From positions 186,001-250,000 of the forward strand of contig CP089280.1 in NCBI GenBank assembly GCA_023920165.1: DNA of 64,000 bases, read 5' to 3'. This document shows, in pieces, positions 1 to 62,444 of this stretch. The position numbers and the translations under genes are program-made. The first letter of the stretch is position 1. Each line of letters opens with the position of its first letter. A model generated the notes under the pieces. The model was not told the DNA's origin, did not search any database, and saw nothing but the letters and a program-made list of their open reading frames with translations. Source of the stretch: Curvularia clavata (Eukaryota).

Positions 1-23
1 TAATTTAGAGCTTGTTATATTAT

Positions 24-58
24 CTATGCGGCTGTGTGGCCGTGCGGCGCTTTTGCCG
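24..58 (+). repeat. Left 35-bp inverted repeat
   Basis: 34/35 reverse-complement match to 5957-5991. Confidence 0.9.
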
Positions 59-297
59 AGCAACTCAGGACACTCGAAAACCAGCTTAGGAGGCAAATTT
101 CGTCTCGCTCGGTCCCGCTACTGCATGCTGTCACTCTATCGTGCGCTCAAAGAACGAACGACACCTGTCGCACCGCAAGATGATTGAATAATTAGCCCGA
201 AAACCGTGCAACCCTATTTGCCTATAAAATGCTACCAAAGCTGTGCTTAAAGACTGCTATTATAATCACATGGCCTTGTAATTACTCTACCTAGTAT

Positions 298-3200
298 CTA
301 GTACTGGCTCATCTCTAGCTTGTCAAGTTCGCTTAATATATCGTCGTCTTCGCAGTCACCGTCGTCAGGCGAAGCGCAGCAAATCCCGCAAAAAGCTCTA
401 CTTCCACCCCATTTCTCACCTGCCCTTGCGCCGAGGATAGATCCGATCAGCGACGCCGCTGTCGGCCGCAGCTTTGATTGTGGATTGACCATGTCTCGCA
501 CCCACTCAAGCGCTGCGTTGTCTGTACTATTGCTAGTTGTCTCAAGCTCTGCAATGAGAGCATCAACACCAGCAAGATTCGTGCGCACATAAGACTGCAT
601 TGACCCGTGCTCCTGGAGAAAGCTGTACATGTCGCGCACCTTTCTGCCTTTCAGCACCACCGTCATCTCAAGAAACACGACTCCCAGGCTCCAGATGTCG
701 GACGACGTGTTTCGAGGCTCTTGGTCGGCGACCTCAGGTGCGCAATATCTTGGAGTCATTCCGTTCACCATGCTGACCGTGGTGCTCCCGTCCCTGTCTG
801 TGAAGTCAAACGCTAGCCCAAAGTCGGTGTACAGCACGTTTCCGCGATGCACTAAGATGTTGCTTGGCTTAATGTCTTTGTGTCTGATGTGCTGCTCGTG
901 CAGGAACTCTAGCGCTCTTGCCAGACAGCCGAAGAAGGTGCGCAGCTCTTGGTGCGTGGCGCTGTCGGCACGATCAAGGTAGGCCGAGAGATCCATGTCA
1001 GCGACAGGAGACATCAGCAGACCCATGTGCTTGGTGTCAGTGTAGCTGCCGACGAACTCTACCACGTGGCGGTGCCTTACGCGCTTCAGGATCTTCATCT
1101 CAGCAGCGAACTGTCGAATGCATTCTGCTTTCCGTCGGTTGTTGTGTGCTCCGCTAAACACAGCGCTCCGCAACACGCGCTTGAGTGCATACTCTCGGTA
1201 ACTGATAGTGCTGAGCACCCAATCGACCTGCCCAAAGCCTCCTGAGCCAAGACGGCCTTTTATCTCTAGCGGAAGAGGCTCGTTTGTCCGGAAGAAGCAA
1301 TGCTGACCTTTTTCGCCTTTCTCAAGATCCACAGACTTGGTCATGACCAGGTTCTGCGCGCCCACGAAACGTGAGCGCTTGCTGGGCAGGACACAAGGCG
1401 GAAGAGTTTGCTCAGTGAAGGGGAACCAGACATCGGAGACACCTAGATCAATAAAGGCGTCGAGAAGCTCTAAACAGCCGATGACCCGTAGAACTACGTA
1501 TGTTCTTGGAACTTTGCTCCATTTCAGATTGATCTGGCCTAAGAGACGAGATACATGCTGAATGTCGGAGTCGGTGTACGCTATCTGTCGTTGGGAGCCC
1601 TCGGCGAAGAAGTCGCCTAGTTGAGACGCGGCTCCTGCGAGGGTCTGGGTTGGGGCAGGCGGCATCTTGGCAGCAACCACCTTCTGCAGAAGCTGTTTGC
1701 TCTCCAGCGTGCGTTTGTGGTCCGCGCCATGCACCTTCTCCCGCTGCTCAGCTACTTGTCGCACCAGCAGCTCGGCCTCTGCGTGCTTGTTCTGGAGGTA
1801 AAGCGTAAGTGCCAGGTAGTGTCTGTTCTCGAGCGTGTCTTCGTGGTCAGCGCCTAGCGACTTCTCTTGCTGCTGGTCTACGTGTCGCAAGAGCTGCTCT
1901 GCCTCTGCATACTTCTGCTGGTCGCAAAGCGTGACTCCCAGGCTGCTCTTGCTCTCCAGCGTGGTTGAGTGCTCAGCGCCTAGTGCGCGCTCCGCCTGCT
2001 CGACCACCTGTCGCAGCAGCAGCTCGGCTTCGTCGTATTTTTGCAGACTACGGAGCGCCCATCCAAAGCTGTGTTTGGTCATCAGTGTTGTGGCACTCTC
2101 AGTGCCTAGCACTTTCTCAGACTGCTCAGCCAAAGGTCGCAGCATCTGCTCCGCCTCTGCGTGCTTCTCTTGTACAAGGAGCAAGCCCGCCAACAAAAGC
2201 TTGCTCTCAAGTATGCCTGCGTGCTCAGCGCCCAACACCCTCTCCCGCTGCTCAACCACTTGTCGCAGCATCTGCTCCACCTCTGCGTGCTTCTCTTGTT
2301 CAAAAAGCGAGCCTGCCAAAAAAAATTTGCTCTCAAGTGTGTCTTCGTGCTCAGCGCCTAGCACCCTCTCCCGCTGCTGCGCTAACTCTCGCAGTATCTG
2401 CTCTGCCTCCGCGTGCCTCTGCTGCTCGCAAAGCGTGACTCCTAGCATGTGCTTACTGTGGAGCGTGTCGACGTGTTCAGCGCCTAGTACTCTCTCCCGC
2501 TGCTGCGCTAACTCTCGCAGCACTTGCTCTGCCTCCACGTACTTCTGCTGCTCGTAAAGCGTGAGTCCTAGCCAGTATTTGCTGTAAAGCGTGTCGACGT
2601 GGTCCGCGCCAGATACCTTCTCCCGCTTTTGTACTAACTTTTGCAGCACCTGCTCTGCCTCTGCGTACTTCTGCTGCTCGTAAAGCGTGAGTCCTAGCCA
2701 GTATTTGCTGTAAAGCGTGTCGACGTGGTCCGCGCTAGATATCTGCTCCCGCTTTTGTACTGACTCTTGCAGCACCTGCTCTGCCTCTGCGTACTTCTGC
2801 TGCTCGTAAAGTGTGAGTCCTAGCCAGTATTTGCTGTAAAGCGTATTGTCATGGTCCGCGCCGAGCACTTTCTCCCGCTGCTGCGCCGACTCTCGCAGCA
2901 TCTGCTCTGCCTCTGCGTACTTCTGCTGCTTGTAAAGCGTGAATCCTAGCCGATATTTGCTCTCAAGCGTGTCGACGTGGTCCGCGCCAGATACCTTCTC
3001 CCGCTCCTGTACTAACTCTTGCAGTACCTGCTCTGCCTCTGCGTATCTCTGCTGCTCGTAAAGCGTGACTCCTAACATGTATTTGCTGTTAAATATGTTG
3101 ATATAGTCTGCGCCGAGCACGTTCTCCCGCTGCTGCACTACTAATAGTTGCAGCACCTGCTCTGCCTCCGCGTACTTCTGCTGCTTGTAAAGCGTGACTC

Positions 3201-3375
3201 CTAGCCAGTATTTGCTGTAAAGCGTATTGTCATGGTCCGCGCCGAGCACTTTCTCCCGCTGCTGCGCCGACTCTCGCAGCACCTGCTCTGCCTCCGCGTA
3301 CCTCTGCTCGTTGTAGAGTCTAACTCCAAGCCAGTACTCTTCTTCCCCGACGCGGTTCTTCTCAAACAACGACAT
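298..3375 (-). CDS. N-terminal TPR-repeat (13 x 42 aa) + C-terminal Ser/Thr protein kinase, 1025 aa, single ORF
   Basis: 42-aa repeats 'LGxTLYxQQKYAEAEQVLxxxxQQRExVLGADHxxTLxSK' (TPR_10/TPR_12 type). Kinase motifs intact: GSGGFG, ALK, HKDIKPSN, DFG, YCAPE, SDIWSLG. Confidence 0.92.
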   Translation of the reverse strand: MSLFEKNRVGEEEYWLGVRLYNEQRYAEAEQVLRESAQQREKVLGADHDNTLYSKYWLGVTLYKQQKYAEAEQVLQLLVVQQRENVLGADYINIFNSKYMLGVTLYEQQRYAEAEQVLQELVQEREKVSGADHVDTLESKYRLGFTLYKQQKYAEAEQMLRESAQQREKVLGADHDNTLYSKYWLGLTLYEQQKYAEAEQVLQESVQKREQISSADHVDTLYSKYWLGLTLYEQQKYAEAEQVLQKLVQKREKVSGADHVDTLYSKYWLGLTLYEQQKYVEAEQVLRELAQQRERVLGAEHVDTLHSKHMLGVTLCEQQRHAEAEQILRELAQQRERVLGAEHEDTLESKFFLAGSLFEQEKHAEVEQMLRQVVEQRERVLGAEHAGILESKLLLAGLLLVQEKHAEAEQMLRPLAEQSEKVLGTESATTLMTKHSFGWALRSLQKYDEAELLLRQVVEQAERALGAEHSTTLESKSSLGVTLCDQQKYAEAEQLLRHVDQQQEKSLGADHEDTLENRHYLALTLYLQNKHAEAELLVRQVAEQREKVHGADHKRTLESKQLLQKVVAAKMPPAPTQTLAGAASQLGDFFAEGSQRQIAYTDSDIQHVSRLLGQINLKWSKVPRTYVVLRVIGCLELLDAFIDLGVSDVWFPFTEQTLPPCVLPSKRSRFVGAQNLVMTKSVDLEKGEKGQHCFFRTNEPLPLEIKGRLGSGGFGQVDWVLSTISYREYALKRVLRSAVFSGAHNNRRKAECIRQFAAEMKILKRVRHRHVVEFVGSYTDTKHMGLLMSPVADMDLSAYLDRADSATHQELRTFFGCLARALEFLHEQHIRHKDIKPSNILVHRGNVLYTDFGLAFDFTDRDGSTTVSMVNGMTPRYCAPEVADQEPRNTSSDIWSLGVVFLEMTVVLKGRKVRDMYSFLQEHGSMQSYVRTNLAGVDALIAELETTSNSTDNAALEWVRDMVNPQSKLRPTAASLIGSILGARAGEKWGGSRAFCGICCASPDDGDCEDDDILSELDKLEMSQY
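1680..3336 (-). repeat. Intragenic tandem array of 126-bp TPR units
   Basis: A ~70-nt identical stretch occurs at 2539 and 2665 (offset 126). A ~80-nt identical stretch occurs at 2820 and 3201 (offset 381 = 3x126+3). Confidence 0.9.
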
Positions 3376-3790
3376 GACTCATTCCAATCGTAAGAAGGGA
3401 GGGACGCTTGGCGACGGATTCGGTCAACTAGGTTCAACACGGTTTGCGCAGAACGTCTTTGAACAAGCATTCTTGTCAGAACGGAGACATAAAGGCAACT
3501 CGTCGTTTCGCACGTGGCTCCGCTAGTTGTGGTGCTGCTCATAGTGGCGTGTGGCTTGTGGCGTGTGTTATGGTGGTCGGGCATGGCGTTGTGCGTGCAG
3601 AAGTGCATGGTCTCGACCTTCAGCTCGCGGGGTCGGGCTGCCGCCACAACAGGAGCAACGCGCAACAAGATCATGTGGTGGACAGGAGTCTCGCCGTCGG
3701 ACTAGGCGAACTCTCATTAGGCCGAAATTCGCAAAGGAAAGATTTGAACGCCTCAGAGATATCCTTTAACAGCCGGAGCAGTTCTTTGTG

Positions 3791-5734
3791 ATGGGGGACC
3801 CGCTCTCGGTTCTTGGCGCTGCCGTTGGCGTGACGTCTCTAATTATCCAGCTCACAGATGAATGCATCAAAGGTCTTGGAACACTGGATGTACGGGATCA
3901 GTGCTAACACTTCACAGGCTTCAGACTCTACAAGAACGCTGTCAATCTGCCGCACACGCACCGCTACCTTCTTGTCCGTCTCCATATTGAACAACAGCGT
4001 TTCCTCCACTTCGCACTGCAAGCTGGCGTCCTGAGCACGGACGGAGCCCTCTGCAGTACGCTTCAGGTCAACCGGTCCCTCTTAGTAGGCGTTCTTGCTG
4101 AGATCAAGACACTGTTCGAGACATACGCAGCGGCCAACGGCAGATATGAAACAATTGGGGCAAAGATGCAGATTGACTGGGACGACCATTTGGAACCGGA
4201 CAATGATCTGATCAGTCTTCTTTGTGTCCCGTCGATTGAAGATGGGCAGACAAAGAAGGATACAAATATAAGCAGGAGAGCAGAGGCCGCCGCGAGAATC
4301 CATCGAATTGGCAGAAACATCTCTCAGGCGGCGAGGAATTTGCGAACGATCATAGTGGAACCGAAACGTCTTTTCTGGGCGGCTGTGGATCACGATTCCT
4401 TCGTGGACCTGATCTCACAGATTGGGAAGCTGATCTCGTTCCTCATCGCACTGCTAGATAGCTCGCAGATTCGGGAACTGCAAAGCTCGGTCGCTACTGC
4501 CTACCTAGAGATCCTGCAGCTTCGCAACGACGTGGGCAGTCTTACGGCCCTTGTCAAAGCGCTATCTCCGGATGTCGGAAGTCAAGAAACTCCCATGAAT
4601 GACGCATTGTCTCAAGCAGTTGCGAGGGAGCAGACGACTCAAGACAAGGGAAAGAGCTATCTTAGGCGCTTGACTCAACTTAAGATACGGCTTACCGCAA
4701 CGAATGAGCTGACTTCCACCGGAATGGCGCCCGACTCTGACGACTTCCTGGATGCACAACTTGCAGTCGCCGATTTCTGTTTCGACGAGGATGTGCCTGC
4801 CAGATGTTCGGTCACGCGCATACACGCCACCTATCGTGGCAAACGCGTCTGGATAGAGTGGAAAAACGCATGGCCCGGCAGTGTCGTATGTCCCAACGAG
4901 GGACAGATCCAGCGGCGGATAAGCCTGCTGACTGATCTTCTGCGCTACAACAAACCGGATGGCTTCAGGGCTGCACCATGTCTTGGGTATATCAAGACTG
5001 TAGACACGGGGGAGGCGACACGCTTTGGCGTCGTTTTCGAGGGACCGTCGGCTCAACGATTTGAGGTCACCACTCTTCGAGACTTGCTTGGTCGGGCCCC
5101 GAAACCTTCCCTCAATGTTCGTATGGCACTTTGTGCAGCCCTAGCGCGTTGTGTACACAGCCTTCATGCGGTGAGCTGGCTGCACAAGGCCTTGCGACCT
5201 GATAACATCGTCTTCTTTACTTCTCAAACATCGAACAACCTGGACAAGCCATTTGTTTCTGGTTTTGAGCTCTCTCGTCCTAGCGACATAGATCAATGGA
5301 GTGAGAAGCCTGAGTTTGACCCTGCCGCAGACATCTACCGTCACCCAAATGCTCAATCTAGTCAAACAGATGGCAATTATCGCAAGTCGTACGACGTATA
5401 CAGCCTGGGTGTGGTGATGACAGAAATTGCACTCTGGAGGCGACTCGAAGACATCTTAGGACTGGAGAATCTCCCGAAAACCAAGCCCTCCCAGCTCCGG
5501 GCAATACAGTCTCAACTCTTAAGAACTGAGGCTGCGTGGCACGCTGGTGTCACTGAGCCTTGTCTTTCCCAAATTGCTTCAGCATGCGGAGATTTCTTAC
5601 GCGATACTGTCGAGCTCTTCCTCGGTAAAGATGCTCATGGCAAACCAGAACTTTCAGGTGTGAGCGTGGAGTCACCGTCTGCGATAGGATTGGATACGGT
5701 AGAGAGGCTGGAACAGATCGCCGCAGCAGTGTGA
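3791..5734 (+). CDS. HeLo (prion-inhibition and propagation) domain + C-terminal kinase-like (pseudokinase) domain; exons 3791-3872 and 3918-5734
   Basis: ATG 3791 gives MGDPLSVLGAAVGVTSLIIQLTDECIKG. A 45-nt intron (3873-3917: GT..GCTAAC..CAG, containing an in-frame TAA) joins to FRLYKNAVNLPHTHRYLLVRLHIEQQRF, in frame with ORF 4166-5734; this is a typical HeLo N-terminus. Kinase-fold motifs: HKALRPDN, SGFELSR, YRHP, YDVYSLG. Confidence 0.85.
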
Positions 5735-5956
5735 CTTGAGTAACTCTTTATAGCTCTGGCACTGTGCTCAGCGAACGCTTTTGCGATCTAATGCGCATTG
5801 ACAATAACTAGCGTATACGCTGTACTTGACATTGCTGAGATGCTAATGCTCACAGCTCGATTTGCCGCATTTCCATACGTATTGCGCAATCACTTGCTGA
5901 TCAAATTCATTATGTCGTTAGAAATCGCAGTCCGTAGATGCAAGAGTTTTTCTGAC

Positions 5957-5991
5957 CGGCAAAAGCGCCGTACGGCCACACAGCCGCATAG
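5957..5991 (-). repeat. Right 35-bp inverted repeat
   Basis: Reverse complement of 24-58 with one mismatch. Confidence 0.9.
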
Positions 5992-6166
5992 CCACAGATC
6001 TAGCGTTAGCATCAATAGATTACAGCTAAGCTGCTTTTAGCTAGATATAATACGGGTTCTCTTTATCTAGCACTTCTAGCAGACGGACTTAGAGCTAGCA
6101 TCGAAGCGCAGTAATCTCTCAAGCTTAGGCGTAGTACTTAGAGTAGGATATTAATATAATAAGCTA

Positions 6167-8021
6167 ACGTAGTTTATAAGCGAGTCGGTCATACAAGCGA
6201 GTCGGTCACCCCTCTAGCTTTGATCACCCACCTTAACTTTACGCGCAATGTCTCTACACCACGCTTCTAAATTAACTTCTCACGAAGGGGATGTTCAGCT
6301 TGTCCTTTCTTCTCTAGATAGTAATCAAATCTAGAGTACCCGACGCGCTACTATAGCCTTCAATGTTCCGAAATCAACACTAATCGACCGACGCGCTGGG
6401 AGGCACGCGCGGCGCGATTGCCAGCCTAATTTAAAGAAGCTATCGCAGCTAGAAGAGCAAGTGATTGCTAGCCATATAATCGATCTCGATCTACGTGGAT
6501 TTGCGTCTACCTATGCTGCTGTGCGAGATATGGCTGATAAGCTGCTGGCTGCGCGCGACGCTGGCCAGGTTGGCGTTTACTGGCCGCGCAACTTTGTCAA
6601 GCGTACAGACAGTCTTACGACGCGTTTCAATCGAGCGTATAATAGGTAGAGAGCCCTATATGAAGATCCGGTCTTAATCAAGAGCTGGTTTGAGCTTGTA
6701 GAGCAGACGAAGGCTAAGTACGGCATCTGCGACGAGGACGTCTACAACTTTGACGAAGCTGGCTTTTTAATGGGCAAGATTACTACTCAGCTTGTCGTTA
6801 CAGCGTCAGAGAGAAGAGGCCATCCAAAGGCTATCCAGCCAGGTGGTCGCGAGTGGGTGACGTTTATCGCTACGATTAACGCAGCTGGCTGGTCTATCCT
6901 ACCATTTCTGATCTTTACTGGCAAGTATCACCTGTCTGCCTGGTACGAGGAGGCAGAAATCCCACGCGACTGGGCGATCGCAGTGAGCAAAAACGGCTGG
7001 ACGACTAATAAGCTTGGAGTTAAGTGGCTAAAGCACTTTATTAAGCATACAGATGGCAAGGTTGTTGGAGCACGCCGGCTACTTATCCTTGATGGCTATA
7101 AGAGCCACCAGTCACTTGAGTTCCAAGAGCTCTGCAAGGAGAACAATATCTACACGCTCTGTATGCCGCCTCACTCGTCTCACCTACTCCAGCCTCTTGA
7201 CGTTGGCTGCTTCTCCCCATTAAAGCGCGCGTATAGCCGTGAGGTAGAGAGTCTAATACGTAACCATATCAACCATATCACCAAGCTCGAGTTTCTACCA
7301 GCGTTTAAGGCAGCGTTCGATCGATCCTTCACGCCAGCCAATATCTGCTCAGCTTTCCGAGGCGTAGGTCTTATTTCTCTCCAGCCAGATACTGTTCTAT
7401 CAAAGCTTGACGTACAGCTACGTACGTCTACTCCTCCAGCTGCTCTCGCGGAAGCTCTCTAGCAGCCCTATACGCCGAGCAACATACGCGAGCTTGAAGC
7501 TCAATCAACGCTAATAAGTAATCGCGTTCGACAGCATAAGAGCTCTTCGCCAGCTTCAATTATCGCAGCAATTGATCAGCTTAAGAAAGGCGCGCAAGTA
7601 ATAATACTATCGGCTGAGCTAATGCGCGATCAGATCACTAGTCTTTAGAAGGCTAATGAGCTAGCATCAAAGCGTAGACAGCGTAAAAGAAAGCGAATAT
7701 AGAAGCAAGGAGTACTCACAAAGGGAGCTGGCGAGGATATTATCGCTCAACGCGATGCTGATAAGCAGATTGCTCATGAAGAGCGTCAGGGAGGAGAGCG
7801 ATTAGGTGTCAGCGGCCGGGCTCTTGCGCGCTATAGTAGATGCAAAAAGACTGGCCATAACTCGCGTACATATAAGAAAGATACTCTAGATAGCAATTAA
7901 TCTACTATCTTAATATCTGTCAAAACTATCTATATGTGGTGGAGCTACACGCTTGTAAAGGTGCGCAAAGTTAGTAGGGTGACCGACTCGCTTGTATGAC
8001 CGACTCGCTTATAAACTACGT
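6167..8021 (+). mobile_element. pogo/Fot1-type Tc1-mariner DNA transposon, 1855 bp, inactivated
   Basis: Perfect 45-bp TIRs ACGTAGTTTATAAGCGAGTCGGTCATACAAGCGAGTCGGTCACCC (6167-6211 / 7977-8021) with internal direct repeat AAGCGAGTCGGTCA. TA target duplication at 6165-6166 and 8022-8023. Confidence 0.97.
6248..7900 (+). pseudogene. Fot1/pogo DDE transposase pseudogene
   Basis: One reading frame from ATG 6248 to TAA 7900 with HTH/CENP-B, NFDEAG, LILDGYKSH and PPHSSHLLQPLDVGCF motifs. In-frame TAG stops at 6332, 6647, 7460 and others. C-terminal zinc-knuckle Cys changed to Tyr. Consistent with RIP-type transitions. Confidence 0.93.
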
Positions 8022-8132
8022 TACTAGCTAAAGTAAAATAGTTGTATAACGCTTAACTATACTAAATGTTGATATTACACGGTAAGCAGAAACTATTTCT
8101 AAAAGCTGTTAAGAGAGAATATATCTTATAAC

Positions 8133-8247
8133 TGTCAGAAGCTCAGCCCTGTGCCACTGGGCCACTGCAACCAAAAAGGTACGAGTAATCAGCGTTCTGC
8201 TGATGCTCTGCACAGGATAGTATATATAGTCAGCGCAGCGCCTGACA
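8133..8247. mobile_element. Probable short solo LTR (115 bp)
   Basis: Begins TGTCAG and ends CTGACA; flanked by 5-bp near-TSD ATAAC/ATAGC; internal TATATATA. Confidence 0.5.
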
Positions 8248-8688
8248 ATAGCTTAAGGCTCCTATTCTGAGAATATCTATTCTTCTAACTGGTTGTTGAG
8301 TTTGTTATATTGGGCAGTGTCTGTGGCGTCCCGCCACGCAGGGTGTCCCGTTACCTGGGGATGGACGTTATTTAGTTTCTTAATCCCTATGGTTAGCAGT
8401 TCTAATGTCGGTTGGTTTTTTTGTACCCACACCAGCGCCCCGGCTAGGAGCCCGCCCAACCGCAGAGAAGAGAGAACTGATTGATGGAAGGAAGGGGAAT
8501 ATTGCACAATATATAACTATACGTAGTATGAAATCGTTTGCTACGCGGACTGTTATGTGAGGGCTTTTGACGCGAGGGCGTTTGCTATGGGGGCTACCGC
8601 TCTTTCGACGACACTGTTCGTAGGCAGCCACACATGGCATTATTCATTCCTCTAAAACTATGCTTTCCATTTTAACACCCACAGCCCA

Positions 8689-9669
8689 TCAGACCTTGGG
8701 CTGAGCCTCCGCCAGCTTGATCTTTCCCTGCTCATCATATACAATCTCCCGGATCTTGACACACCGCAGATGGTTCACGCCCTTGCTCAGACTCGAGTCG
8801 TGGTAGAACAGATACCACTTTCCTTTGAACTCTGCAATGCTGTGATGCGTCGTCCAGCCAATGACAGGCTCTAGGATCCTTCCACCGTATGTAAACGGGC
8901 CCATCGGGGAATCGCCAACCGCATAGCATAGGAAATGCGTGTCGCCCGTCGAATAGGAGAAGTAGTACTTTCCGTTATACTTGTGCATCCAGGCTGCCTC
9001 GAAAAACCGCCTCTCGTGGTCTTCAGCGCGGATCTGTTCGCCTGCTTCGTCCAAAATCACGACGTCGGTAACGTCTGATGAGAAAGACTTCATGTCGTCG
9101 GTCAATCGCGCCACTTTTGCGCATAGAGCGGGACCAGACTGCGCTTCCATGGTCTCGTAGGCAGACCGCTCAAACGACCCCGTCTGCCAGCACTGCAGCT
9201 GTCCACCCCAGATACCGCCAAAGTACAAGTAGGCCTGGCCATCGTCGTCGACAAACGCCGCAGGATCAATGCTGAAGCTTCCCTTGATGGGTTCTGGTTC
9301 TGGCGCAAAGGGTCCTTCAGGTGTATCTGCGGTTGCAACACCCACGCGGAAAATGCCCTCCTTGTCGCGCGCGGGGAAGAAGAGATAGTATTTTCCGTTC
9401 TTAGTAGCAGCGTCTGGAGCCCAAAGTTGCTTGCTGACCCAGGGGATATCTTCTTGCTTGAGGGCTACGCCGTGGTCAGTTACAGGACCGCCGACGGAAT
9501 CCATGCTGAAGACATGGTAGTCGTTCATGTCGTATTGGTCGCCATTGTCGTTATCAGCAATGTCGGTCTCGCGGTCGTGCGAGGGGTAGATGTAGAGTTT
9601 GCCGTTGAAGACGTGGGCAGAGGGGTCTGCGGTATAGACGTGGGTGACGATTGGCTCTTTGTCTGCCAT
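8689..9669 (-). CDS. Glycoside hydrolase family 43 beta-xylosidase/arabinofuranosidase, intracellular
   Basis: YTADPSAHVF, LWAPDAA, SIDP, FFEA and WTTHHS motifs; no signal peptide. Confidence 0.92.
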   Translation of the reverse strand: MADKEPIVTHVYTADPSAHVFNGKLYIYPSHDRETDIADNDNGDQYDMNDYHVFSMDSVGGPVTDHGVALKQEDIPWVSKQLWAPDAATKNGKYYLFFPARDKEGIFRVGVATADTPEGPFAPEPEPIKGSFSIDPAAFVDDDGQAYLYFGGIWGGQLQCWQTGSFERSAYETMEAQSGPALCAKVARLTDDMKSFSSDVTDVVILDEAGEQIRAEDHERRFFEAAWMHKYNGKYYFSYSTGDTHFLCYAVGDSPMGPFTYGGRILEPVIGWTTHHSIAEFKGKWYLFYHDSSLSKGVNHLRCVKIREIVYDEQGKIKLAEAQPKV

Positions 9670-10027
9670 GGTTGTTTACTGAAAATACAATGTAAGGTTC
9701 TTTGAAGCTGAGTTTATTCCAAGGGGTATCAATTTAAATGTTTCGAAAGGAGAAAGATTTGGATTCGAAGGTATGAACCAGTCGTCTACTCCTACGTCTC
9801 CCCTCCTCTTATGAATGGAGGGGTACTCTCTGCCCCACGATCCCTCTCCCCTCTCCCACCGGACAAGCTCCCTCTATTTACCCGCCGGCACGGCTATCCT
9901 ACCAGGCCAAGAGCTCTCCAGTGCGTGATCCAAGACGGGAACATAATAATACCCACCTGGGACTGCCTTTATGGCGGGTACAAATGGTGTTTCCCGTGTG
10001 TAAAGAGTTGCAACGACGTTGGTGTGT

Positions 10028-10325
10028 TTAGCCGTGCATTCTTCCGCCCCAACGCAAGCGCCCTTTTTGGAGGATGACAGGTTCGGTGATCTACAGCACG
10101 TACAGATTTGCCTCGGGTCGCCGGACCTCATGCGCTTTACCCGCGCTGCGACGTGTTTTCGCGTAGGGCTGGATTCGGTAGGGCTGGCAATATGATGGCG
10201 CCCGGACGAAATACCCGCGAATCAGTATACGCCAGCCTCACTTAAATCAACAACTTTCCTACCGAAAGATTTTTGGTCGACTGTTTAACTTATTCAGTAC
10301 TAGCCTTCGTGTAAATTACCTAGCC
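10028..10325 (-). promoter_or_regulatory. Candidate XlnR sites (GGCTAR) upstream of GH43
   Basis: GGCTAA at 10028-10033 and GGCTAG at 10300-10305 and 10320-10325 on the minus strand. Short motifs, could be chance. Confidence 0.3.
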
Positions 10326-10447
10326 AAGAAGACGATGGGTTACCATCTAAGTTGTATAATAGTTTTCTTTAGCGACAGCATTTTGGCTTTTACTCGAATT
10401 AACTCCCCGACCACCACGCAAGTAGTATACACAACCCACAGTCTAGT

Positions 10448-11564
10448 CTAGAAGCCCGCTATGTATCGGTGCTTATCAGTCACCTCCGTCACCTCGAACT
10501 TCATGCCGACCCTTACTTCCCCCACCGTCCTTGGCACAGCCAACATGCCATAACACGGCTTGTACGTGATGCCCTCATCAATTCGCCTATACTTCATCAG
10601 CACATCCCATGGCTGCGTCTTGTGCTTCTCAGCTGTATCAGGATCTACGTTGGGCACCTGGCAACGTGCGCAGCGTTGTGTAATGTCCAAGACAATGGGC
10701 TCCTTGCCAGAAGCTGGTGTGATCTTGAGTGTTTTCCAGCGGTCTTCGTCCCAGGGCGCATTAGCGTCGCCCTTGACGACAATGTTGGGTCGGAAGCGGC
10801 GGACGTCGATGGTGACGCCTTCGGCTGCCTTGAGGCGCGTGTTGAGCTCGTCAATACTGCTCTTGTTGCCGACTAGGATGGGCATCAGATCGGGGAAACA
10901 GGTGGATGCGGCTCTTCCTAGTACAGCTGGCGCGCCGTTGGAGACAAGTGGTCGAGGATCATTAGAGACGGGCGGCTTATACACCAGTCGTACTTCCTTG
11001 CCGAAAAAGGCGTTGAAAGGGGCTGTCAATTCAGTGGAGTAGACGCGAGTTCCAGTAGTGGTACTCCAGATCTTTGCTGAATGATCTTCGGTGTTCTTCT
11101 CAAGCCACTCCTTTGACGGATGAGCCGGAATGGAAAACTCGAGTTTCTCATCAATGGAGTTGGGAGCTGGTGCGGTGACCGTAAGGGTATCAGTTGCCTC
11201 ATCGTAAGTAGGTCGGATCAGAGTCATTTTGGAGTTTTGGCGGATGGTGAGGAACTCATATTCTGGGTAACTCACCCACATCCATTGGCGATCTGGCGTT
11301 ATCAGAATCTGCCAAGTCAGGGTATTACCGGGCCAGATGCTTACCTAGGTCGAGGCCAGTAGGCAGTAGTTTTGCCGACTTGACAGATATGCCATGACAT
11401 GACTTGATTGGGTGTAAGAAGAGCGCAGTGATCTCTGTTGGTGGTGGCAAAGGTCCGGCCGTGCTCTTTGGTTTTTGCGTTTTCGTAAAATAGAGATAAG
11501 TAAGGATTGGTAGGATAAAGATGGACAGCAGGACTGCCGCTTGGGTAGCAGGTGGAGGCCCCAT
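10448..11564 (-). CDS. MOSC-domain (mARC-like) molybdenum cofactor protein with N-terminal TM; one intron ~11292-11345
   Basis: LFLHPIKSCHG...GLDLD|RQWMWV (MOSC_N); FPD, RRFRPNIVV, CARCQVPNVDP (MOSC). Confidence 0.88.
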
Positions 11565-12067
11565 CCTAGTGGTATCGTCGTTGCGACTCGACGACTGCAA
11601 TTGCGAATATTATTATGAAGTAGGAAAGATTGTTGCTGATCTTCGATAGATGATAGTCTATGGGGTCAGCAATCTTTATGTTCGAGTCAATTGGCAAGGA
11701 CAATCCGAATGGAGCTGTAGGGCGCACGTTCGACAAGTGTTCTATTTTACAAAAGACGGTGTCCAAAGATCAGTAGCTAACCCTTTCTATCCACAGCATT
11801 TATAACCACAAATGGCGAGACCTGATGATGACGCAAAGGGCGGGGAGAGCTGTAATGCTGTAAATGGCTTAGCGCTGCGGAAATTGATCAGCGCAAACTC
11901 CGCGGCATCTGAACTACACTACATTTTGTATGCCTGGTATCCTTCAATGTCAATCTGAACTGGATGACCTAAGCCTCTGCATATATATCCTTCCACTCAT
12001 TTCTCATCAGGATCCAACTCGGCCCATCTCTGCCAACTTGTCAACCTTCAATTTGCTGCAGTATGCT

Positions 12068-58705: not shown

Positions 58706-60305
58706 ATCCGGCAAGCGTGAAGAACAAGTGATGCGAAAACTGGATATGTCTGGATCCCACACCCTGCAATGGAACAGTCAAGATTGAGTAGGTAGGTGGC
58801 GCGTAAAGAAGAGATTGATTGTATTTGCAACCATCTCTGCTAATGCTTAGGTATTGCTAACTCTATGCCCTCGGCTCTTTGGCCTGAAGACGTCATAACA
58901 ATCCCTCAAACACGAAGCGATTGGACGAGTCGTCTTACTTTTGCTCATTGAACCAGTGAGATTTACTGAGGCGGAAGAGAACGCCGCACACGCCGTCAGC
59001 ATGGGCGCAACAGTTGTGGTTGTGTGCCAGGAATGACGTCTGTCAAGTCCATGGATAGGATCTTCCCCGCATCTGAGGCGGTACATTCCCGTTCGGCCTC
59101 GTAAAGCGAGCAATCTAGATCTGGTCCGAAATCGCACATATCATCGCGTAAATGATTTGGACAAGCAACTCTGTCTTTAGGACCTCGTTATTCCCGTCAT
59201 TGATATGTGTGGAGCGTTTTATGGGGAATCTGGGGTACGCCAGTAAGCGCGATCTCCTACGCCCAGCAAATAAACGGAGACAGTCACTAAGAATGGCCAA
59301 CCAAACTCATAGTAGTGGGGAAGATACAAGAGTTTATGCTTGCTACCATAACTTTTGCCTGGCACCATTAGCCACGGTTTTGGTCGTTTTGTATAGCATG
59401 TGCGATGACCCCTCTAGCACCAATCTCGCTACCATGGGCTGGACGTATGTAGCAGGGATGTGCTTGCGTTCACCTTAGACGCTAAACTAAGTAATCCTAC
59501 CTCCAGTCATGTAATTGAAGCTTCAACCGCCTACAACATTAAATACTCGCAACAACAGTATCGAAACCTCAAAGTAGCCGAAGCTTCTGGAGCATGGCCT
59601 TGTCGCAAATCGTCTCCCAATCCAATACACGGTCTACCACATGGTGCTGCGCAACATTTCTTTCTCTAACCTGGCATACCTAAAGATTGGTTTGTTTCGA
59701 ACAACACCTCAACAGTATGATCCCACTTGGAGACTAGCAGCTACCTATCTTCAGCTTGCTGCAGGACTGTAAAAGAGCCGGAAAGCTCTCAGTTTACCGA
59801 CAGAGATGTGTGAGTATGCTGGAAGAAACAGCCATGTGGCGTTCAAAAGGAAGCAATATGAGTCATCCGAACATGAAGCCTCACCATCAGGCATTATGCC
59901 AGTTGTCGTTTCCAATTACGAGAAACAAGGCCCAGAGCTGTGTTGCCCCGCCTCGCGTTCCGTCGCTTATTTGACAGCCCTGTCGATCCACAAATCTTTG
60001 TGTTGGTTGTGTAACATAGCACGTATTATGTCATACGATTGTGTGACTGCGGCACAGCCTATGCACATTCTAGCTGGAGTTGCACCTTAACTTGGCTCTT
60101 ATCATTTGTTTTGTTGCGAACTTCTTGCATCCTACGGGCCCACAAAAACTAGACGAAGAGCTTGAGCATATTGACAAGATCATAACTTTACCCTGTGGCA
60201 AACATCGTTGCTGCTCCTAATCAAACTAGCAACACTCGGATACCCTTCCAGCGTTCCATATCTACCCTGCGCCATACTGCAATCTGGCCTGGATATCATT
60301 GGAGA

Positions 60306-62444
60306 ATGGCCCAGTGCGAGTTTTGCAATGCAGTTGCAAATGAGATTGAAAGAGCCGTGGAAGATCAAGAGAAGTTTGGGTGGGAGTATGACGATCACGA
60401 GGAGTTCGTGTGGGAGTATGACAAAGTTAGACAGAACCGTGGGTGTGTTACGTGTCAGAAGGTTGTACGAGCTTTCCATATGGAATATCTGGGTGTTCCT
60501 TTGGGTGATAAGCTTGGCTATGTGTCCTACTTCATAGATCGTTGGATACTGAGCCTTCGAGATCGAATCGATGGTTTCGTCGGAAGAAAACCCTTTATTG
60601 GTATTAACTTCGCGGCCGATCATGGTACTCCAAACGAGCTCGGGTTTTCTATCTGGAGACGAAGGATTAATGTCGCGGGCATCAAGAGGTGGATTGACCA
60701 ATGTGATCAGAACCATGGTGGAAGATGCCACACTTTCACCGATCCCATCTTCAAAATACCAGAAGCCACTGGATTGATTTTCATCGACGTCGAAAAACTT
60801 TGTTTGGTGCGGCAATCGAAGGATGGGCAGAAGTATCGATATGCCGCCTTAAGTTATGTATGGGGCACAACTACCGATCCTTTCCAGACGACGATGTCGA
60901 ATTTTGATGAATTGAGCAAGCCAAATGCATTCAAGCTACCTGAAAACATTTGGCGACTTCCCAAAACGATCAAGGATAGCTTTCTTTTGACTCGCACTCT
61001 CGGCATACAATACTTGTGGGTCGATAGATTCTGCATCATACAGGATGATGAAGTTTCAAAACCCCATCAACTGGCCTCTATGACCTCCATATACACGAAT
61101 TCATACGTCACTATTGCAGCCACCGAAGGCGAAGATAGTAGCTACGGACTCTGTGGAATTGGAAAGAAACGTCCAAGGACACCGCCGTTTGACATCTTCA
61201 ATTTTACTCCTAGTTGTCGCATGATTTCATATTCACCAAGGAAATCAACTTCCCGCCAAGTCTATCATACTCGAGGTTGGACTTTTCAAGAATGGACTTT
61301 TCCGCGCCGCACGATAGTATTTCACGACCAGACCGTTACTTGGGCATGTCAAAAATGTCAGCAGCAAGAAAATGGGAAGGAATCGTGGCAAATCCCCCAA
61401 AAAACATACATTTCCATTTGGACAAGAAGGGTCGATCCTCAAGTCTACTGTACGAAGGTAGACGAGTATAGCAGGAGAAACCTATCTGATCCAAGTGATG
61501 TTCTAACTGCATTTGATGCGTTTATCACGGTGCAAAGCCGTGCCATGAAGAGCGCGGTATTGCATGGCCTGCCAGAACTTTTCTTTAACAGCATGCTATG
61601 CTGGCATCATGACTTAGACTTTCCCCAACGAAGACGAGTTGATTCTGAAGGCAAGGTACTCAAACAATTTCCCTCTTGGTCGTGGGCCGGCTGGGTGGGA
61701 CCAACTGATACACTTCTACCTTACGAGGCAAGTAGTATCCGGATGAAATTCGCGCCTGGTCGTCTTATATATCCTTGCATTATCGACATTTACAAGCTCC
61801 CCACCAACTCACCACCTGGAAGACGACAGTCGGTAAAGGATTTACACTACTATGAGAATCTTGGCGTGACAACGTTTGTTAAGGACGAAGATTCGGAGGA
61901 AGAGCGGTGGGTTGAATACAAACTTATTGTGCCCGACGATGACGACGCCTCCTCCCTTCTTTCGAGCACCAATCTACTGTATTCCACAGTTATCGAGTTC
62001 CGTACTCGCCGGCTGATCACGACCTTAGCAGAATATGACTTTAACGGTTCTCGAAAGGATCTGGTTTCTATACGAGGCTCGAAAGGGCAAATGATTGGTA
62101 CTCTAGACTTTCTCTTATCTCTCCATCCACTTGATCTGCCCAAGCACAATGTCGAGCTCATTTGCATCAGTGTCAGCGAGCCAGTGTGCACAAAGCATGC
62201 CCACACTCGAACACCTGGCTCCCAGTACCTCGTAGGCCAAAATTGTCTTGAAGAATGCTTCGAAAAGAGAGATCAACACTTAGAGTCGATATATGAACCA
62301 GCATCCAATTGGCAGTTCAGATGTTACGATGTACTCTGGATCGAGTGGGAAGGCGACATTGCGTATCGAAAAGCTATAGGACAAGTCTGGAAAGAGGAAT
62401 GGGACGCTGCGGACACAGAGGAGGTAGACATACGACTTGGATAG
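60306..62444 (+). CDS. HET (heterokaryon incompatibility) domain protein, single ORF
   Basis: YAALSYVWG, LPKTIKDS, YLWVDRFCIIQDD, MTSIYTNSYVTIAA, TRGWTFQE, FPSWSWAGW. Confidence 0.92.
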   Translation: MAQCEFCNAVANEIERAVEDQEKFGWEYDDHEEFVWEYDKVRQNRGCVTCQKVVRAFHMEYLGVPLGDKLGYVSYFIDRWILSLRDRIDGFVGRKPFIGINFAADHGTPNELGFSIWRRRINVAGIKRWIDQCDQNHGGRCHTFTDPIFKIPEATGLIFIDVEKLCLVRQSKDGQKYRYAALSYVWGTTTDPFQTTMSNFDELSKPNAFKLPENIWRLPKTIKDSFLLTRTLGIQYLWVDRFCIIQDDEVSKPHQLASMTSIYTNSYVTIAATEGEDSSYGLCGIGKKRPRTPPFDIFNFTPSCRMISYSPRKSTSRQVYHTRGWTFQEWTFPRRTIVFHDQTVTWACQKCQQQENGKESWQIPQKTYISIWTRRVDPQVYCTKVDEYSRRNLSDPSDVLTAFDAFITVQSRAMKSAVLHGLPELFFNSMLCWHHDLDFPQRRRVDSEGKVLKQFPSWSWAGWVGPTDTLLPYEASSIRMKFAPGRLIYPCIIDIYKLPTNSPPGRRQSVKDLHYYENLGVTTFVKDEDSEEERWVEYKLIVPDDDDASSLLSSTNLLYSTVIEFRTRRLITTLAEYDFNGSRKDLVSIRGSKGQMIGTLDFLLSLHPLDLPKHNVELICISVSEPVCTKHAHTRTPGSQYLVGQNCLEECFEKRDQHLESIYEPASNWQFRCYDVLWIEWEGDIAYRKAIGQVWKEEWDAADTEEVDIRLG

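Follow-up and report, generated by a model that had tools for sequence, protein, structure and literature searches.

A TPR-kinase gene and an MLKL-like gene between 35-nt inverted repeats in Curvularia clavata: a possible transposase-less cargo element

What kind of unit is a pair of putative cell-death genes that lies alone between two nearly perfect inverted repeats? The question is posed by the first 6 kb of a 64,000-nt stretch of Curvularia clavata DNA (contig CP089280.1 of assembly GCA_023920165.1, positions 186,001 to 250,000 of the forward strand; hereafter the window, with its first letter as position 1). Here gene 1, encoding a TPR-bearing protein kinase, and gene 2, encoding a HeLo-domain pseudokinase, stand head-to-head and intact in a unit of 5,968 bp (24-5991) bounded by two 35-nt arms. 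A preliminary description of the window, made from its letters, had read this unit as a non-autonomous DNA transposon that moves a complete sensor/effector module, possibly as a selfish or horizontally transferred element. Our own estimate is that 24-5991 is, with a probability of about 45%, a transposase-less class II element or the immobilised relic of one, with the arms as its terminal inverted repeats (TIRs). The parts of the unit, including the open reading frame (ORF) of each gene, are as follows.

24-58, plus strand: left arm, a 35-nt inverted repeat; the TIR proper would be 27-58 if the TA at 25-26 is a target duplication.
59-297, minus strand: 3' flank of gene 1, 239 nt from the stop codon to the left arm, without similarity to the 3' flank of gene 2.
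298-3375, minus strand: gene 1, an uninterrupted ORF of 1025 amino acids with an N-terminal TPR_10 array and a C-terminal protein kinase domain.
1697-3332, minus strand: tandem repeat array within gene 1, in units of 126 nt (42 amino acids) that encode the TPR, with an identity of up to 90% between units.
3376-3790, no strand: intergenic region, 415 nt between the divergent start codons, presumed to be a shared promoter.
3791-5734, plus strand: gene 2, 632 amino acids in our model, with exon 1 at 3791-3872 and exon 2 at 3918-5734.
5735-5956, plus strand: 3' flank of gene 2, 222 nt from the stop codon to the right arm.
5957-5991, minus strand: right arm, matching the left arm in reverse complement with one difference in 35 nt (34/35); the TIR proper would be 5957-5988 if the TA at 5989-5990 is a target duplication.

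The anatomy of the unit was described accurately from the start. The arms are reverse complementary at 34 of 35 positions (97%) across a spacer of 5898 nt, and the only mismatch lies at position 44, where the left arm has a G and its counterpart on the right an A (a TG>TA change). The distances from the arms to the two stop codons, given earlier as ~240 and ~220 nt, agree with the 239 nt (59-297) and 222 nt (5735-5956) listed above, and the claim that just two genes are enclosed is matched by Pfam, which assigns TPR_10/Pkinase to one ORF and HeLo/DUF7580/kinase-like domains to the other. No transposase would fit into the non-coding DNA, which consists of stretches of 239, 415, and 222 nt, and the unit is therefore transposase-less.

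Several properties of the arms are those of transposon termini. With up to 3 mismatches allowed, the 35-mer matched two places in the 64-kb window, namely the two arms, and none of 100 dinucleotide-preserving shuffles of the window reached two matches (mean 0.00). Five inverted pairs of at least 25 nt are present in the window, two of which are more than 90% complementary: the arm pair and the 64-nt TIRs of a pogo element to the right of the unit. As the other such pair belongs to pogo, the arm pair falls into the same high-identity class as bona fide TIRs. In alignments of 300 nt per end, the similarity between the arms stops abruptly on both sides, with 6 of 23 positions agreeing outward and nothing recognisable inward, and the arms thus have the sharp ends expected of TIRs. 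A sharp-ended inverted repeat with 34 of 35 matching positions has one common cause, that is, transposon termini.

The second line of evidence is the change in the DNA just past the outer end of the right arm, where two features outside the unit follow, the first of them resembling DNA altered by repeat-induced point mutation (RIP).

5992-6164, no strand: AT-rich, RIP-like DNA, 173 nt, GC 0.40, TpA/ApT 1.73.
6165-8023, plus strand: pogo/Fot1-like element whose TIRs, TA included, measure 64 nt, and which retains a DDE_1 ORF remnant of 230 amino acids.

Inside the unit, the GC content is 0.536 and the TpA/ApT ratio 0.87, the latter being 0.71 in the rest of the window. The transition to AT-rich sequence just outside, as first noted, thus stands on the right of the unit (GC 0.40 in 5992-6164 vs. 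0.536 inside); the left flank within the window comprises 23 nt with a GC content of 0.17. Also AT-rich is the DNA to the right of pogo (8024-8218, 195 nt, GC 0.39, TpA/ApT 1.57).

Public sequencing runs allowed this edge to be placed more closely. Eighteen runs matched the window. At least half of the sampled words occur in two of them only, X1 and X2 from one organism (fractions of 0.91 and 0.88), X2 being a possible source of the window itself, and the contigs of four of the 18 (X2 to X5) were aligned to positions 1-12000. At position 6012, X2, X3, X4, and X5 have 1, 6, 6, and 3 extra contigs, respectively, and the depth at this position is 6-15 times the local value in X3 and X4. The bin 5601-6000, which includes the right arm, has no excess depth in any of the four (92.9, 2.86, 3.37, and 4.78 in X2 to X5). 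The coverage at these two places indicates that a flanking repeat family stops within ~10-20 nt of the outer end of the right arm, so that the arm itself is not part of it. Depth over the pogo element lies far above that of the unique flanks in all four runs, reaching about 9200 in X2 compared to about 90 for single-copy DNA (up to ~100 times), and the pogo family is thus abundant. The stretch 8024-8218 is repeated as well, especially at ~8133-8204, with raised depth in the bin 8001-8400 and loose contig ends of X4 at 8133 and 8204. Altogether, the unit is embedded, beside a pogo copy, in a small patch of repeated DNA with RIP-like features that borders a block of core genes.

A number of observations weigh against mobility of the unit, among them the copy number of the arms. 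The contigs of X2 are letter-identical to the window over 1-2567 (extending a further 115 nt leftward), 3252-6192, and 8219-12000, with 0 differences, and they pass unbroken through both arms at single-copy depth (85.5-92.7 over the unit; 85.5 and 92.7 at the arms), while the assembly does break inside the TPR array and 28 nt inside the pogo TIR. If the contigs were built from 31-letter words, as they presumably were, no other locus of that genome shares a 31-mer with either arm; this indicates that there is no recently amplified family of arms, in the sense that identical copies are excluded, as one central mismatch would hide a copy. The 64-kb window holds no third copy of the arm at up to 3 mismatches, and neither JGI metagenome contigs nor prokaryote genomes gave any match (0 each) to the 24-mer core of the arm. 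The joint expected of an empty site, 23 to 5992, was absent among the joints listed (15 of 34), with a left flank of 23 nt available for the search, and at this coverage its absence carries no weight. The ends of the arms are unlike the TIRs of the adjoining pogo element, and the comparison revealed no similarity between the two, as had been stated before. Furthermore, X4 holds pieces of gene 1 at ~92% identity, and one of its contigs (record 17, 2207 nt, ~92% identical) matches 135-920 and diverges before the left arm is reached, which hints only weakly that the arm is not conserved, given that divergence of non-coding DNA would produce the same picture.

The ends of the unit are likewise equivocal. 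TA is found at both (C-TA-TGCGG ... CCGCA-TA-G), but because TA is palindromic, and thus inseparable from the end of the repeat, it is ambiguous as a target duplication. In favour of a duplication, the arms of the neighbouring pogo as detected likewise include its TA. One more complementary pair, C24/G5991, lies beyond the TA, and no target duplication of 3, 4, 8, or 9 bp fits the ends. Additional searches were negative as well: no autonomous partner with TIRs of the arm type was found in the 64-kb window, nor any other copy of the flanks (best other match 34 nt, 79%, E 0.036), pieces of the arm sequence had no occurrence in the searchable literature, and none of 62 pattern matches to gene 2 in metagenome contigs was confirmed by tblastn. 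Low-depth pieces of ~99% identity, both inside the unit and in the flank, are present in X3 and X5, which indicates that a very close relative also has both genes.

A further point against recent movement comes from the relatives of gene 2. A quick tree was calculated from 38 rows, comprising the named matches and the 10 closest others, chosen from 120; the database protein P0001 (Curvularia clavata, Pleosporaceae), which is 100% identical to gene 2, was cut to its first 640 residues to remove a mis-fused pogo part. Gene 2 of the window falls within a Pleosporales clade that comprises 15 rows and has full support, next to a relative of 73% identity and then Corynespora, and most classes, although not all, group together. 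The tree tracks taxonomy at the level of class and order, and nothing marks the unit as recently imported. Horizontal transfer, which the preliminary description had considered, is therefore not supported at these levels, and among the 38 rows there is no sign of transfer across classes.

On balance, the earlier interpretation as a non-autonomous transposon stands in its anatomical part, with sharp TIRs, no transposase, and a change of sequence at the right edge, while the marks of actual transposition, i.e. a further copy, an empty site, and a clear target duplication, were not found. If 24-5991 is a transposon, its ends would most economically be a 32-nt TIR (27-58 and 5957-5988) flanked by a TA target duplication, and the unit would resemble a cut-and-paste element of the Tc1/mariner type whose transposase would be encoded elsewhere and act in trans, as has been proposed for the fungal element ToxhAT/ToxTA. 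The arms would then serve as transposase binding sites, the TA would represent the duplicated target, and the unit would at some time have moved as a whole. The more specific proposal that a small cut-and-paste transposon captured, and can move, a complete necroptosis-like pair, consisting of an MLKL-like executioner and its TPR-kinase activator, appears unlikely, but its consequences would be considerable. Fungal immune and cell-death genes turn over rapidly by means that are poorly understood, and transposon ends around such a pair would provide a direct link. The unit would represent a mobile and self-contained eukaryotic cell-death or immune cassette, comparable to the mobile defence islands of bacteria, and offer a route for the spread and turnover of such modules among the Pleosporales.

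Alternatively, the genes may be a resident pair and the arms a duplicated cis element, such as a 3' untranslated region or terminator element, a protein-binding site, or a boundary site, which co-regulates both genes. As the genes are divergent, each mRNA would bear a copy of the 35-nt sequence 222-239 nt downstream of its stop codon, a symmetrical placement, and single-copy arms are what would be expected of a local element. Each arm also contains two CGGC-N6-GCCG mini-palindromes, 16 nt apart, so that four of the six occurrences of this motif in the window lie in the arms, compared to 1.15 expected by chance, and in mRNA sense both arms form the same two hairpins. Fungal zinc-cluster regulators typically bind inverted CGG triplets. 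However, the motif does not occur in the 415-nt intergenic region, the presumed promoter of the pair itself, the folding energy of the arms is ordinary (z -1.9 and -1.65, with 10 and 17 of 200 shuffles folding as well), and no Rfam match was obtained in 1-8700 with E up to 1. Moreover, the identity of 34 out of 35 positions extends over non-palindromic loops and tails, which needs a recent duplication that a regulatory role does not explain, and it would remain without explanation why repeated RIP-like DNA starts at the outward end of the right arm. We consider a cis-regulatory origin of the arms quite improbable.

Equally doubtful in our assessment is that the arms are the facing termini of two transposable element (TE) copies or remnants outside the unit, one ending at 58 on the left and the other starting at 5957 on the right, so that the genes were trapped between them and are not cargo. 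The DNA beyond the right arm is indeed repeated and RIP-like, and on the left the X2 contig extends 115 nt outside the window and then stops, which is how contigs behave at repeats. The geometry of TIRs would also permit it, as two TE copies in the same orientation would yield such an inverted pair with unrelated sequence beyond. Yet the repeat family to the right excludes the arm, given that the bin 5601-6000 has no excess depth in four of four runs, and no matching terminus was found in 5992-8700. The version raised in the preliminary description, in which the arms are ends of two small TEs, does not hold for intact elements, which would leave four arms where two are present within 3 mismatches; for remnants, two independent truncations to an identical 35 nt are unlikely.

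The weakest alternative, which we rate as very unlikely, is that the arms are a by-product of rearrangement without a transposase, in which repair inserted or translocated the segment and left a short inverted duplication at the borders, or that they are what remains conserved of a kinase-bearing gene once duplicated in inverted orientation: kinase-fold domains do end both genes and point outward, making an ancient inverted duplication geometrically possible, and rearrangements do occur in the family, in which the gene orientation is either head-to-head or on one strand (P0173 and P0207, see below), but with kinase domains that are 25% identical over 126 residues and 3' flanks that cannot be aligned, a 97%-identical 35-mer is not a passive relic of duplication, and known inverted duplications generated by repair adjoin each other, unlike arms 5.9 kb apart. 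The low identity of the kinase domains (25%) rules out an inverted kinase-gene duplication as the origin of the arms.

Whether or not 24-5991 is a transposon, the enclosed genes matter regardless of mobility, as they are found as neighbours across Dothideomycetes, Leotiomycetes, and Lecanoromycetes. A gene-1-like match lies one or two locus tags away, on a contig of the same length, for 6 of the 20 named gene-2 matches with sequential tags; for this comparison, the best 120 of 2237 gene-1 matches were used, so the remaining 14 of 20 are not evidence of absence. The adjacent tags are 07779/07780 in Venustampulla, 005508/005509 in Pseudogymnoascus australis, 003128/003129 in Gyalolechia sp., 001338/001339 in G. 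fulgens, 007180/007182 in G. marmorata, and 003985/003986 in Protoblastenia, and the neighbouring protein pairs are P0013/P0159, P0032/P0193, P0028/P0176, P0029/P0178, P0056/P0172, and P0053/P0199. These six species belong to the Leotiomycetes and Lecanoromycetes, in a class look-up that omitted Protoblastenia and two of the Gyalolechia. Four further pairs of gene-2 and gene-1 matches lie on contigs of equal size (46342, 26265, 8733, and 376301). In addition, P0173 (yc1106_07026), the second pair of C. clavata itself, and P0207 from Elasticomyces, a member of another class, are annotated as single proteins with the order HeLo, pseudokinase, TPR, kinase, i.e. as fused or tandem forms on one strand. 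As the pair in the window is arranged head-to-head, the relative orientation of the two genes varies between loci. The preliminary claim that the genes form a sensor/effector module is supported, and the module is ancient, with a neighbourhood kept in other classes. The pairing of the genes is older than the repeats, which did not create it.

Gene 2 supplies the putative executioner of this module. It starts at 3791 and not at the ATG at 4166 of the long ORF; exon 1 (3791-3872) codes for MGDPLSVLGAAVGVTSLIIQLTDECIK, and the 45-nt intron that follows (3873-3917) has GT..CTAAC..CAG signals. The resulting N-terminus agrees with the near-invariant start, an N-terminal helix, of homologues in three classes. 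The model of P0001 differs in that it uses another first exon and splices from ~5700 to ~6460, over the right arm and into the pogo DDE_1 ORF, giving a 944-amino-acid chimera that spans 3791-7462; we regard the splice into pogo as an annotation artefact. According to Pfam, gene 2 combines a HeLo domain with a C-terminal kinase-like domain (DUF7580/PK_Tyr_Ser-Thr). In its family (68 relatives), the Asp of the HRD motif is lost (HKG in the family, HKA in gene 2) and GFE replaces DFG. GFE in place of DFG is also the motif of MLKL. Consistently, 11 of the 14 matches of the family profile to PDB sequences were MLKL pseudokinase domains (best E 1.4e-6). The AlphaFold model of gene 2 (predicted local distance difference test (pLDDT) 73.7, predicted template modelling score (pTM) 0.77) retrieved TKL-type kinases with Foldseek, where full-length MLKL (4btf) ranked sixth with the longest alignment (467 columns). 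As judged from these comparisons of sequence and predicted structure, gene 2 is MLKL-like both in its architecture and in its pseudokinase sequence, the features expected of an MLKL-like executioner.

The partner, gene 1, has 11 Pfam stretches of TPR_10 upstream of its kinase domain. The kinase retains the catalytic Lys and the HKD, DFG, and APE motifs, all of which vary little or not at all among 66 aligned relatives, and is by sequence a generic Ser/Thr kinase with ULK3, BRSK2, and NEK as best matches. Pfam detected neither a NACHT nor an NB-ARC domain in the 1025-amino-acid ORF, where the domain order is TPR, then kinase, and gene 1 is therefore not a NOD-like receptor (NLR). At its C-terminus (298-360), gene 1 also encodes an FCGICC cysteine motif and an acidic tail, which are kept in 66 relatives; this motif may be a lipidation or metal site.

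From their domains, motifs, and conserved neighbourhood, we infer that the two proteins would work in a manner similar to RIPK3 and MLKL. Gene 1 would detect a cue through its variable TPR array, upon which its active kinase would phosphorylate the pseudokinase of gene 2, and phosphorylation would free the N-terminal HeLo helix of gene 2 for attack on the membrane, as RIPK3 does with MLKL. When the gene 1 kinase domain was modelled together with the pseudokinase domain of gene 2, the predicted complex scored 0.10 against a mark of 0.34, a result without controls that counts neither for nor against an interaction. In a review, HeLo-like domains joined to a kinase or pseudokinase are called 'reminiscent' of MLKL, and fungal death pathways are said to be often organised as clusters of two or three genes (PMC12881547). 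No published description of a TPR-kinase partner for a HeLo-pseudokinase was found by a search that took in PMC10197012 and PMC12258605 and did not extend to subscription journals and supplements. With its conserved neighbourhood, the gene pair is a directly testable candidate for a kinase-driven, necroptosis-like form of fungal cell death.

The block of core genes further to the right in the window includes genes for GH43 (at 8689-9669), MOSC, 5'-nucleotidase, Uds1, N-acetyltransferase, MYST acetyltransferase, velvet, P450, CDC45, and GH76 proteins and a HET-domain gene. The latter, a heterokaryon incompatibility (HET) ORF at 60186-62444 (752 amino acids), is another gene of the cell-death type, located at the far end of the window.

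Comparison with known systems places the cargo near MLKL and the unit near a known kind of fungal transposon. Gene 2 resembles the MLKL proteins of animals and plants in having a helical N-terminal domain (HeLo, a homologue of 4HB) and a GFE pseudokinase, and an active kinase adjoins it. In contrast to RIPK3, to which the RHIM belongs, gene 1 is a generic, TPR-bearing Ser/Thr kinase by sequence. The placement of an executioner beside a repeat-bearing sensor is shared with fungal two-gene clusters such as het-S/nwd2, HELLP/PNT1, and gasdermin/protease-TPR. Such clusters are common in fungi, and the TPR repeats of their sensors are highly alike, as reported in the same review (PMC12881547). Unlike in those clusters, the sensor in the window has neither a NOD (nucleotide-binding oligomerization) domain nor an amyloid motif, and activation would, as far as the domains suggest, proceed by phosphorylation and not by amyloid templating or proteolysis.

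Among mobile elements, Starships are fungal and, in published accounts, include cases with NLR-like or cell-death cargo genes. Their size ranges from tens to hundreds of kb, their first gene is the captain, a DUF3435 tyrosine recombinase, and their borders are direct repeats or short TIRs. No captain was found in the 5,968-bp unit, where Pfam detected TPR/Pkinase and HeLo/DUF7580 domains only, and the unit by itself is therefore not a Starship. Pack-MULEs have long TIRs and target duplications of 9-10 bp, carry gene fragments, and occur in multiple copies. The unit would be similar to them in having TIRs around captured host sequence and no transposase, but differs in its two whole and intact genes, its short arms, the missing 9-bp duplication, and its single copy.

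The closest parallel is ToxhAT/ToxTA, known from Bipolaris sorokiniana, Pyrenophora tritici-repentis, and Parastagonospora nodorum, which, like the unit under the transposon reading, is TIR-bounded, non-autonomous, and equipped with host-type cargo genes. In B. sorokiniana, the element measures 14 kb and has 74-bp TIRs, a TA duplication, and cargo genes, and is non-autonomous (PMC12506042), so that an element of this type demonstrably exists and moves in a genus close to Curvularia. The likeness extends to the Pleosporales as hosts (Bipolaris is the sister genus of Curvularia), TA at the ends, a TE-rich setting, and nested Tc1/pogo elements, whereas the empty sites and the TA duplication of ToxTA are proven and it occupies several positions, compared to 6 kb, 35-nt arms, a single copy, no empty site found, and an ambiguous TA in the window. 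The cargo differs as well, being a secreted host-selective toxin in ToxTA and a cell-death kinase/pseudokinase pair in the unit, and the two are likened by anatomy and not by the sequence of their TIRs. Thus, if 24-5991 is a transposon, it represents a ToxTA-like cargo element and belongs to a known kind. If its arms work, it would be the second, and much smaller, TIR element with whole genes in the Pleosporales after ToxTA, and the first such element with a cell-death module as its cargo.

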